Origin: an uncultured Methylomirabilota bacterium
GTDB taxonomy: Bacteria; Methylomirabilota; Methylomirabilia; Methylomirabilales; 2-02-FULL-66-22
DNA: 64,000 nt
Reading direction: 5' to 3'
Assembly (NCBI GenBank): GCA_963845565.1
Contig: CAWJSJ010000002.1
Span: forward strand, 2,400,001 to 2,464,000
Shown: positions 18,600 to 19,262 of the stretch, in pieces
Layout of the letters: each line of letters starts with the position of its first letter
Position numbering within the stretch: the stretch's first letter is position 1
Position numbers: made by a program

Positions 18600-19262
18600 G
18601 CTAGTGTCCCAGTTGTTCTGCCAAGGGCATTGCTGGGTAGCTATGTTCGGTCGGGATAAGCGCTGAAGGCATCTAAGCGCGAAGCCCCCCCCTAGATGAG
18701 ATCTCCCTCCTGTTCGAAAGGACAGGACTTAAGGCCCCTTGAAGACCACGAGGTTGATAGGCCGGAGGTGTAAGTCCCGCGAGGGATTCAGCTTACCGGT
18801 ACTAATCGGCCGTGCGGCTTGACCTCATTTTTCTTCTTTCATTCGATACTTTCGGGAAGCAATGAGACACCCGATTCGCTATTCGTCTTTGCCAATGCGA
18901 TGCGTCGCTTTTGTGCTTGGCTTAAGCGGTACGCTGGTGCTTGGAGCGGACGATGTGTTGCCGGCGAACCAGGGAAAGCCCGAGGTGGCTACCCAGGTTC
19001 AAAAGGCGCCGGTAAAGTCGGCGGGAAAAGCCGATGTGAATACGGCGAGTGTCGACGAGCTCTCGCGACTGCCGGGGATGAACGTTCAGACCGCCGAAAA
19101 GATCATCGGAAATCGTCCGTACCGAAAGCTGGACGAACTGATCACCAAGAAGGTGCTGGGCAAGAAAGAGTTTGCGCAGGTTCGGGAGTATATCGTGATC
19201 AGGTCCGGCAAGAAGTGATGTGTCGCGGTTGGCTCGAGTCCTGAAGTTTCCGGTGGCTATAG

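Follow-up and report, generated by a model that had tools for sequence, protein, structure and literature searches.

A conserved gene for a putatively exported helix-hairpin-helix protein in the 23S–5S rRNA spacer of Methylomirabilota, with an mRNA that is probably part of the rRNA precursor and freed by its processing

In bacteria, the spacers of rRNA operons are known as sites of tRNAs rather than of mRNAs. The tRNA-Ile and tRNA-Ala genes found between the 16S and 23S rRNA genes lie on the rRNA strand of a transcribed spacer, have no signals of their own, and yield products that nucleases cut from the precursor and whose synthesis keeps pace with that of rRNA. Coding sequence near or within rRNA loci is otherwise familiar from split or unlinked rRNA operons that contain protein genes and from the ORFs of 23S intervening sequences (IVSs) and introns. 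In humans, RIEP is reported to be a protein encoded in the rDNA intergenic spacer (PMC9992852). Here, we describe a protein gene in the 23S–5S spacer of an uncultured Methylomirabilota bacterium and its relatives, and consider it probable that this gene for a putatively exported protein is co-transcribed with rRNA, its mRNA being released by rRNA processing.

The analysed window is a stretch of 64,000 nt from the genome designated G000, and coordinates without a contig prefix are positions in this window. It contains the only rRNA operon of the genome, arranged on the + strand in the order 16S, tRNA-Ile, tRNA-Ala, 23S, ORF and 5S, followed by a terminator-like hairpin:

13681..15242, + strand: 16S rRNA, the first gene of the operon (Rfam RF00177, 1611.5 bits)
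15464..15694, + strand: spacer tRNA-Ile(GAT) and tRNA-Ala(TGC) (Rfam; ARAGORN)
15757..15790, + strand: 23S leader strand (5') of the leader–trailer processing helix, approximate limits (cofold; consensus pairs)
15801..18826, + strand: 23S rRNA (Rfam RF02541, 2947 bits, model positions 1–2925)
18852..18884, + strand: 23S trailer strand (3') of the processing helix (cofold, consensus pairs; kept in G017 and G006)
18862..19218, + strand: long form of the ORF, 118 aa (118 codons plus stop), with its start within the helix strand
18895..19218, + strand: short form of the ORF, 107 aa, with a Met-Arg-(Arg/Cys) start conserved in genus g1
18895..18948, + strand: charged N-terminus and hydrophobic segment, a putative signal peptide or membrane anchor (read from sequence)
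19021..19194, + strand: HhH2 domain (Pfam HHH_3; residues 54–111 of the 118-aa form, E 5.3e-14)
19249..19365, + strand: 5S rRNA, the sole copy in G000 (Rfam RF00001, 103.4 bits)
19372..19408, + strand: intrinsic-terminator-like hairpin of 15 pairs with a T run, closing the operon

By the Rfam limits, the 23S–5S spacer measures 422 nt, and the 23S and 5S models run uninterrupted on both sides of the ORF. The initial annotation had described the spacer as holding a coding frame on the rRNA strand, which we confirmed: the frame at 18862–19218 (+) matches Pfam HHH_3. Two overlapping longer frames, at 18819–19244 (+) and 18922–19374 (−), had no Pfam match and were rejected; they are further disfavoured by genus g8, where the longest frame in the spacer is the HhH frame. 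A consensus scan of the + strand from 18000 to 19250, covering promoters of the sigma-70 type only, detected no promoter-like or terminator-like site. As far as such a scan can tell, the ORF lies between two rRNA genes of the same operon and on their strand, and neither a promoter nor a terminator separates it from them.

A six-frame search of 66 genomes of the order, G000 included, produced matches in 32 genomes (G000 counted) at E ≤ 1e-3. Strong matches (E ≤ 5.4e-16) were found in 22 genomes besides G000, namely 9 of 20 in genus g1, 12 of 20 in g8 and the single g7 genome (1/1). The count of 13 of 20 reported earlier for g8 holds for 12 strong matches, while the thirteenth, in G063 (E 2.1e-6), is not beside rRNA genes. 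Rfam scans of all 22 strong-match loci placed a 5S rRNA gene on the same strand 3' of the gene in every case and the 3' end of the 23S upstream of it in 20; the contigs of G014 and G052 end inside the spacer. The conserved position, claimed previously from 12 loci, is thus borne out at all 22. The weaker matches L002, L027–L029, L031 and L032 do not adjoin rRNA genes according to the same type of scan.

The arrangement extends outside the order, to G066, a genome of family f8 in another order of the same class: its 23S ends at L094:2874, an ORF of 114 aa from ATG occupies 2903–3247, and the 5S starts at 3255. Among 14 related loci in genome contigs, 10 were spacer copies; the other four, labelled Pacebacteria, Acetobacteraceae, Pseudanabaenales and Rhodocyclaceae, lie outside the group and not beside rRNA. 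In metagenomes, where relatives were retrieved by peptide patterns and the best 80 of 129 kept, all 80 loci were rRNA-flanked (76 on both sides, with 4 cut by a contig end), and their spacers measured 412–470 nt.

Substitution patterns were analysed in an alignment of G000 and 21 other loci (22 sequences). The G014 locus (L008), whose copy carries three single-base indels attributable to decay or assembly error, was left out of the alignment and of the dN/dS estimates because of its disrupted frame. Among the invariant residues are N49, A51, L56, P60, G61, R74-P75-Y76, D80, K91 and A94. Third codon positions were the most variable in this set of G000 and 21 of the 22 other loci, with pairwise differences per codon position of 0.39/0.32/0.58 in g1 and 0.37/0.29/0.59 in g8. 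Nei–Gojobori dN/dS in g1 (36 pairs) was 0.18 for the HhH domain, 0.65 for the N-terminus and 0.31 for the whole gene; the corresponding values were 0.11, 0.50 and 0.22 in g8 (66 pairs), and medians of 0.12, 0.57 and 0.28 were obtained for 179 pairs with dS of 0.1–1 from 86 sequences. The spacer ORF is a real protein-coding gene under purifying selection, conserved across families; the protein-coding evolution proposed in the initial annotation is seen both in the domain's dN/dS of about 0.12 and in the excess of third-position changes.

The predicted protein matches Pfam HHH_3 (PF12836) over residues 54–111 with 52.5 bits against a cut-off of 27, and Pfam PsbU (PF06514) with 26.9 bits against 24.5. 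Its score for the NCBIfam PsbU equivalog NF002708 (28.4) is below the cut-off of 85. The NCBIfam ComEA models were likewise not reached, with 26.2 against 152.35 for TIGR01259 (comE) and 17.8 against 53.1 for TIGR00426 (ComEA HhH repeat region); the orthologues also fall under these cut-offs, at 41–44 and 31–36 bits, respectively. A charged start followed by a hydrophobic stretch can be read from the sequence in all 22 aligned proteins, with an ambiguous cleavage site in G000. In an AF2 model, pLDDT exceeds 90 for residues of about 45–105, corresponding to the HhH2 domain, and is below 50 for residues 15–42. A profile search of the PDB gave the Thermus ComEA-related structure 2duy as the best match (E 7e-11), followed by human EEPD1 (9yi2, E 1.6e-10) and Geobacillus ComEA (8dss, E 1.4e-8), and also returned many PsbU chains and Tex. 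Foldseek ranked 2duy first (target-normalised TM 0.82, rmsd 1.7 over 60 columns, E 2.6e-3) and 8dss_B second (rmsd 1.5 over 66, E 9.6e-3), these E-values being weak because the domain is small. The modelled domain thus has an HhH2 fold like that of solved ComEA DNA-binding domains.

The initial annotation went further and called the product a competence-type DNA receptor, which the NCBIfam scores and the presence of a better candidate elsewhere in G000 leave unestablished. That candidate is flanked by lysC- and scpA-like genes (C1:512155-512706) and scores 56.5 bits with TIGR01259 and 47.2 bits with TIGR00426 (cut-off 53.1). G000 also encodes DprA and a ComEC homologue (C2:2246578-2247369); the latter lies about 172 kb from the spacer ORF, which has no genomic link to comEC or comF. 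A function like that of ComEA is therefore a reasonable analogy rather than a demonstrated membership. A further paralogue in G000 (contig C6, 133 aa), adjoining an outer-membrane efflux protein gene, is of the free-standing type found in the sister order (f9). The f9 homologues have clear signal peptides and score at most 88.5 bits, against 115.6–152.7 for the spacer copies of the order, and no rRNA gene lies within 1.5 kb of the seven best f9 loci. In the protein tree, the free-standing f9 proteins and the G000 paralogue form a clade (100/99), with the spacer copies all on the other side of that branch; the protein groups follow families f1 and f7. We used this tree only for the split between free-standing and spacer proteins, since the G066 (f8) branch is very long and the f6 copy is placed next to the free-standing proteins. 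Neighbours in the atlas are small HHH_3 proteins, commonest in Acidobacteriota. Relatives are already on public record without comment on their position, as the initial annotation had guessed: as "helix-hairpin-helix domain-containing protein" in a M. oxyfera MAG (KAB2959670.1), as "hypothetical protein CLG94_03875" in M. limnetica, and in JGI data as "competence protein ComEA" or "DNA uptake protein ComE-like". Accessions under which the orthologue is listed are KAB2959670.1 and WP_107561572.1.

Not all genomes carry the gene. The 5S was found in two of five genomes searched in each of families f2 and f4, and the assembled 23S–5S junctions (G021 and G034 in f2, G038 and G040 in f4) have spacers of 55–57 nt. 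An assembly gap, one of two reasons suggested earlier for the lack of matches in these families, is thereby dismissed, while the absence itself is real; deep nodes of the partial-23S tree are poorly supported (18–56, with long branches for f4 and G131), so this tree fits either gain or loss for f2 and f4. In f9, the spacers of three genomes measure 70, 93 and 109 nt. Five f7 genomes without the gene are uninformative because none has an assembled 5S (0/5). Within genus g1, the gene was lost by deletion. In G017, it is wholly deleted, leaving a 76-nt spacer that retains the trailer strand only, and in G006, the 160-nt spacer reads "MRRS*KQFARIRD", in which only the start and the end of the gene remain, about 230 nt between them having been deleted. 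The two genomes are sisters nested in f1 in the partial-23S tree (100/100). The gene is dispensable, given its loss in G006 and G017 and its absence in f2, f4 and f9, and this counts against our main explanation.

Such patchiness, between families and within g1, is also what a selfish or mobile insertion would produce, and ORFs of introns and IVSs are known from rRNA operons. An origin of this kind is nevertheless extremely improbable. The ORF sits between rRNA genes and not within one, and Pfam and NCBIfam searches detected no endonuclease or transposase domain in its product, which instead belongs to a putatively exported type of HhH protein that the sister order has in free-standing form. 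Moreover, the protein groups track families f1 and f7, and the absence within g1 is a deletion that left a remnant.

The internal GTG at 18955 from which the ORF was originally called, giving 87 aa, does not hold as a start: this form would lose the hydrophobic segment kept in all 22 aligned orthologues and was rejected. Judging from the sequences, either ATG 18895 or ATG 18862 is the likely start, and both retain the segment. In g1, an ATG stands at "M-R/Q-R/C" in eight of nine genomes and a TTG in the ninth, the G000 equivalent being ATG 18895. The peptide "MRHPIRYSSLP" read from ATG 18862 is kept in the close relatives P0001, P0002, P0003, P0005 and P0009, of which P0002 and P0005 have Thr in place of the second Met (the 18895 position), and the 118-aa form is already on record in NCBI/ENA. 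Shine–Dalgarno-like sequences upstream of ATG 18862 are only weak, and those upstream of ATG 18895 are weak or lacking.

This region overlaps a helix of the rRNA precursor. The 23S leader pairs with the trailer in a long helix, with leader–trailer cofold energies of −72 to −94 kcal/mol. In six g1 genomes, the helix has 36 consensus pairs, of which 23 are invariant, 5 show compensatory and 5 one-sided changes, with 7 of 216 cells unpaired; in five g8 genomes, it has 31 consensus pairs (9 invariant, 5 compensatory, 7 one-sided, and 21 of 155 cells unpaired). ATG 18862 lies within the trailer strand, which ends about 10 nt before ATG 18895. In g8, which corresponds to Methylomirabilis by protein names, the helix covers the ORF from its ATG through codon five (M-K-R-I-A). 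The start region of the ORF is thus part of a covarying 23S leader–trailer helix, and the "P-I/N-R-Y-S" conserved upstream of the g1 start is helix RNA strand, not necessarily protein. G000 encodes an RNase III-like protein (E 6e-35), with a score of 122 bits that is below the NCBIfam cut-off of 166.

A start region buried in a helix, together with weak ribosome-binding sites, the loss in G006 and G017 and the indels in G014, might suggest that the spacer is transcribed with its ORF hardly translated or not at all, the sequence either decaying as a passenger or serving rRNA maturation as an RNA element. This is very unlikely in view of the HhH dN/dS of 0.11–0.18 and the concentration of changes in third codon positions, and the Pfam domain is retained across four families. 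In addition, an HMM-based check found a single open frame over the profile in all 65 distinct complete metagenome spacers, although retrieval by peptide patterns, as used for these loci, favours intact copies.

How this gene is transcribed is indicated by its surroundings and by RNA from an orthologue. A promoter of its own, in the 3' end of the 23S or in the spacer, could transcribe it alone or with the 5S, a caveat already raised in the initial annotation. The scan that revealed no promoter-like site between 18000 and 19250 (+) was limited to the sigma-70 consensus, and transcription might in principle begin at the 5' end of the RNA described below (L025:1848). Yet the sequence upstream of this end is universally conserved 23S sequence forming part of helix 1, and the covarying trailer strand takes up the first 30–60 nt of the spacer. 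In G017, the 5S follows the 23S by only 76 nt that include the same trailer, so there is no room for a separate 5S promoter and the 5S is read through from the 23S. We consider an independent promoter unlikely and favour transcription from the rRNA promoters.

RNA matching the spacer of the orthologue L025 (genome G050) was found in seven RNA runs of two studies. The evidence consists of assembled contigs of older runs, which convey neither strand, level nor true ends; they were aligned to L025:900-2600. In one study, single contigs covered L025 1420–1848 in X1 (depth 613, against 6.0 for the stretch beyond the 5S) and X2 (130 against 8.8), and 1405–1848 in X3 (246 against 9.9); in the second study, run X5 gave a contig over 1399–1848. 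Besides the whole spacer, the X1 and X2 contigs include the last 9 nt of the 23S and the first 2 nt of the 5S, and the X3 contig has the same 23S end and spacer with the first 16 nt of the 5S, so that in four runs of two studies the contigs extend from 9 nt inside the 23S to 2–22 nt inside the 5S. The Illumina adapter follows directly at 1848 in X1, X2 and X3 and at 1420 in X1. Both ends fall within rRNA genes, 1420 being 2 nt into the 5S and 1848 lying 9 nt inside the Rfam 3' end of the 23S (cut GG|CUUGACC), within the 3' strand of helix 1. From the contigs, we read an abundant RNA of ~430 nt that corresponds to the L025 spacer and apparently runs on into the rRNA at either end.

A 5' end 9 nt inside the 23S is odd for a natural mature 23S end and counts against this reading. 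RNase-H or probe-based rRNA depletion of precursors could yield the same sharp ends, which would still imply that the spacer was joined to the 23S and 5S. Were the library stranded in the usual way, the adapter orientation would fit RNA of the rRNA strand, a weak inference because contigs do not show strand. Holes in the contigs over the 23S and 5S were dropped as evidence since filtering or depletion could cause them, and the break of the X5 contig at 1847/1848 may only mark the end of conserved sequence.

Together, a spacer without signals, a start shared with the processing helix and orthologue RNA contigs that meet both rRNAs back the earlier idea of co-transcription, and co-transcription with release by rRNA processing is probably the mechanism, being the best supported one on indirect evidence. 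We propose that the 23S–5S spacer of the single rRNA operon of G000 carries a functional gene for a small exported HhH2 (HHH_3) protein, which would consist of a charged and hydrophobic N-terminus and one HhH2 domain of the ComEA-related/PsbU type. Lacking transcription signals of its own, the gene would be expressed from the rRNA promoters within a 16S-tRNA-tRNA-23S-ORF-5S precursor, and the synthesis of its message would thus be tied one-to-one to that of rRNA. Endonucleolytic cuts that release the 23S, in or next to the leader–trailer helix, and the 5S would free the mRNA. Since Methylomirabilis and the long form of G000 have their start region in the 3' strand of the helix, and the g1 short form has it ~10 nt downstream, translation would be possible only once the helix is cut and opened. 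Nucleic-acid binding in the periplasm is the most likely activity of the protein, and a role in DNA uptake is conceivable by analogy with ComEA. A more general description, which we think could equally prove right or wrong, is that of a "spacer mRNA": promoterless, equal in number to ribosomes, excised by nucleases, locked at its start by a helix, and kept since before at least two orders split.

Full-text searches, whose coverage did not extend to subscription papers and supplements, returned no description of the position of this ORF in the rRNA operon, and a bacterial protein gene in the 23S–5S spacer, with an mRNA apparently cut from the rRNA precursor, appears not to have been described. 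If true, our proposal would amount to a textbook exception, a naturally occurring mRNA that owes its maturation to rRNA processing, in which the expression of an exported protein of DNA-binding type is hard-wired to rRNA synthesis and maturation and controlled via rRNA promoters, expected to follow growth rate, and via RNase III cleavage. Methylomirabilis enrichments, for which RNA-seq data already exist, would offer a system for the translation and stabilisation of processed 5'-monophosphate RNA, and the full gene, the G006 remnant and the clean deletion in G017 form a natural mutant series for comparison. Genes of this kind can be missed or misquantified where pipelines mask rRNA operons or where reads next to rRNA are thrown away.

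Among proteins of known type, ComEA (Thermus 2duy; Geobacillus 8dss and 8dfk) is similarly small and ends in an HhH2 domain; it begins with a segment for export or anchoring, to which the charged and hydrophobic start of the spacer protein may correspond. The spacer protein differs in its short "RPY-x-K-L-D-E-L" linker, where the other candidate in G000 has the "R..hGPF" type, and its gene differs in being unlinked to comEC, in failing the NCBIfam cut-offs and in coexisting with a better candidate and a paralogue. PsbU, the extrinsic 12-kDa protein of photosystem II, is an exported single-HhH2 protein of about 100 aa, as the spacer protein would be, but the latter fails the PsbU equivalog model; these bacteria are not known to have photosystem II. 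With respect to genome organisation, RIEP also comes from rDNA-associated "non-coding" sequence but is eukaryotic, is reportedly encoded in an intergenic and not a transcribed spacer, has a separate transcript and is unrelated as a protein. Unlike split or unlinked rRNA operons, the operon studied here is compact, with a same-strand gene, one terminator after the 5S and a spacer whose length is about that of the gene plus the processing helix; unlike the ORFs of rRNA introns and IVSs, the spacer ORF is outside the rRNA genes and has no endonuclease domain. The nearest likeness in layout is to the spacer tRNAs, also present in this operon, with which the ORF shares a same-strand location without signals of its own and, in our proposal, nuclease release and synthesis in step with rRNA. 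They differ in that the tRNAs are stable RNAs, whereas the product of the ORF would be an mRNA for an exported protein, translated after release, and in that its start region doubles as a strand of the 23S processing helix.

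In two genomes of the same genus as the window, the helix-hairpin-helix (HHH_3) gene between the 23S and 5S rRNA genes has been damaged or lost: in G006 only a remnant is left, which has lost an internal segment and contains an in-frame stop (locus L100, 1618-1777, rRNA strand), and in G017 it is completely deleted (L099, 1618-1693, rRNA strand). The 3' strand of the 23S leader-trailer processing helix is retained in both genomes alike. The copy in G014 (L008, G014:C23, 1-365) carries three single-base indels relative to the source genome, G000, all within the conserved HhH region, indicating either a pseudogene or an assembly error.

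Methylomirabilales-type rRNA operons with the spacer gene were also present on two contigs of the genome_contigs collection titled 'Candidatus Baltobacteraceae' and 'Patescibacteria group' (L044 and L047), which are probably mislabelled or mis-binned.

In G040, a member of f4 (a family of the same order with 55-57 nt spacers), a 23S stretch of 1445 nt (L038, 1673-3117) spans Rfam model positions 1243-2925 with a score of only 1009 bits, so that about 240 positions are absent. Together with the very long f4 branch (0.6) in the partial-23S tree, this points to an unusually divergent or shortened 3' half of the f4 23S. At G131:C1 96612-96903 (L097/L098), BLAST finds the 23S as two separate matches with a gap of about 290 nt; the G131 branch is long in the same tree, and its 23S may contain an insertion or intervening sequence.

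Downstream of the rRNA operon, the window encodes the following features.

Features downstream of the rRNA operon
19558-21027, + strand: AMIN-domain N-acetylmuramoyl-L-alanine amidase gene (Amidase_3, 177 bits), the first gene downstream of the operon
23708-24458, + strand: five clustered tRNA genes (Pro-TGG, Arg-CCG, His-GTG, Arg-TCG, Arg-TCT)

Elsewhere in G000, a single 927-aa frame (L003:367-3147, minus strand; G000:C1, about 601956-604736) combines Tex domains (Tex_N, central, YqgF and HHH_3) with a nickel-metallochaperone domain of the HypA type at its C-terminal end (residues 816-926); no S1 domain was seen in this frame. It represents either an unusual fusion or two genes joined by read-through. 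Close to the free-standing HHH_3 paralogue of G000, a SAM riboswitch (L002, 2432-2544) lies 5' of a Cys/Met-metabolism PLP enzyme gene, an ordinary placement.
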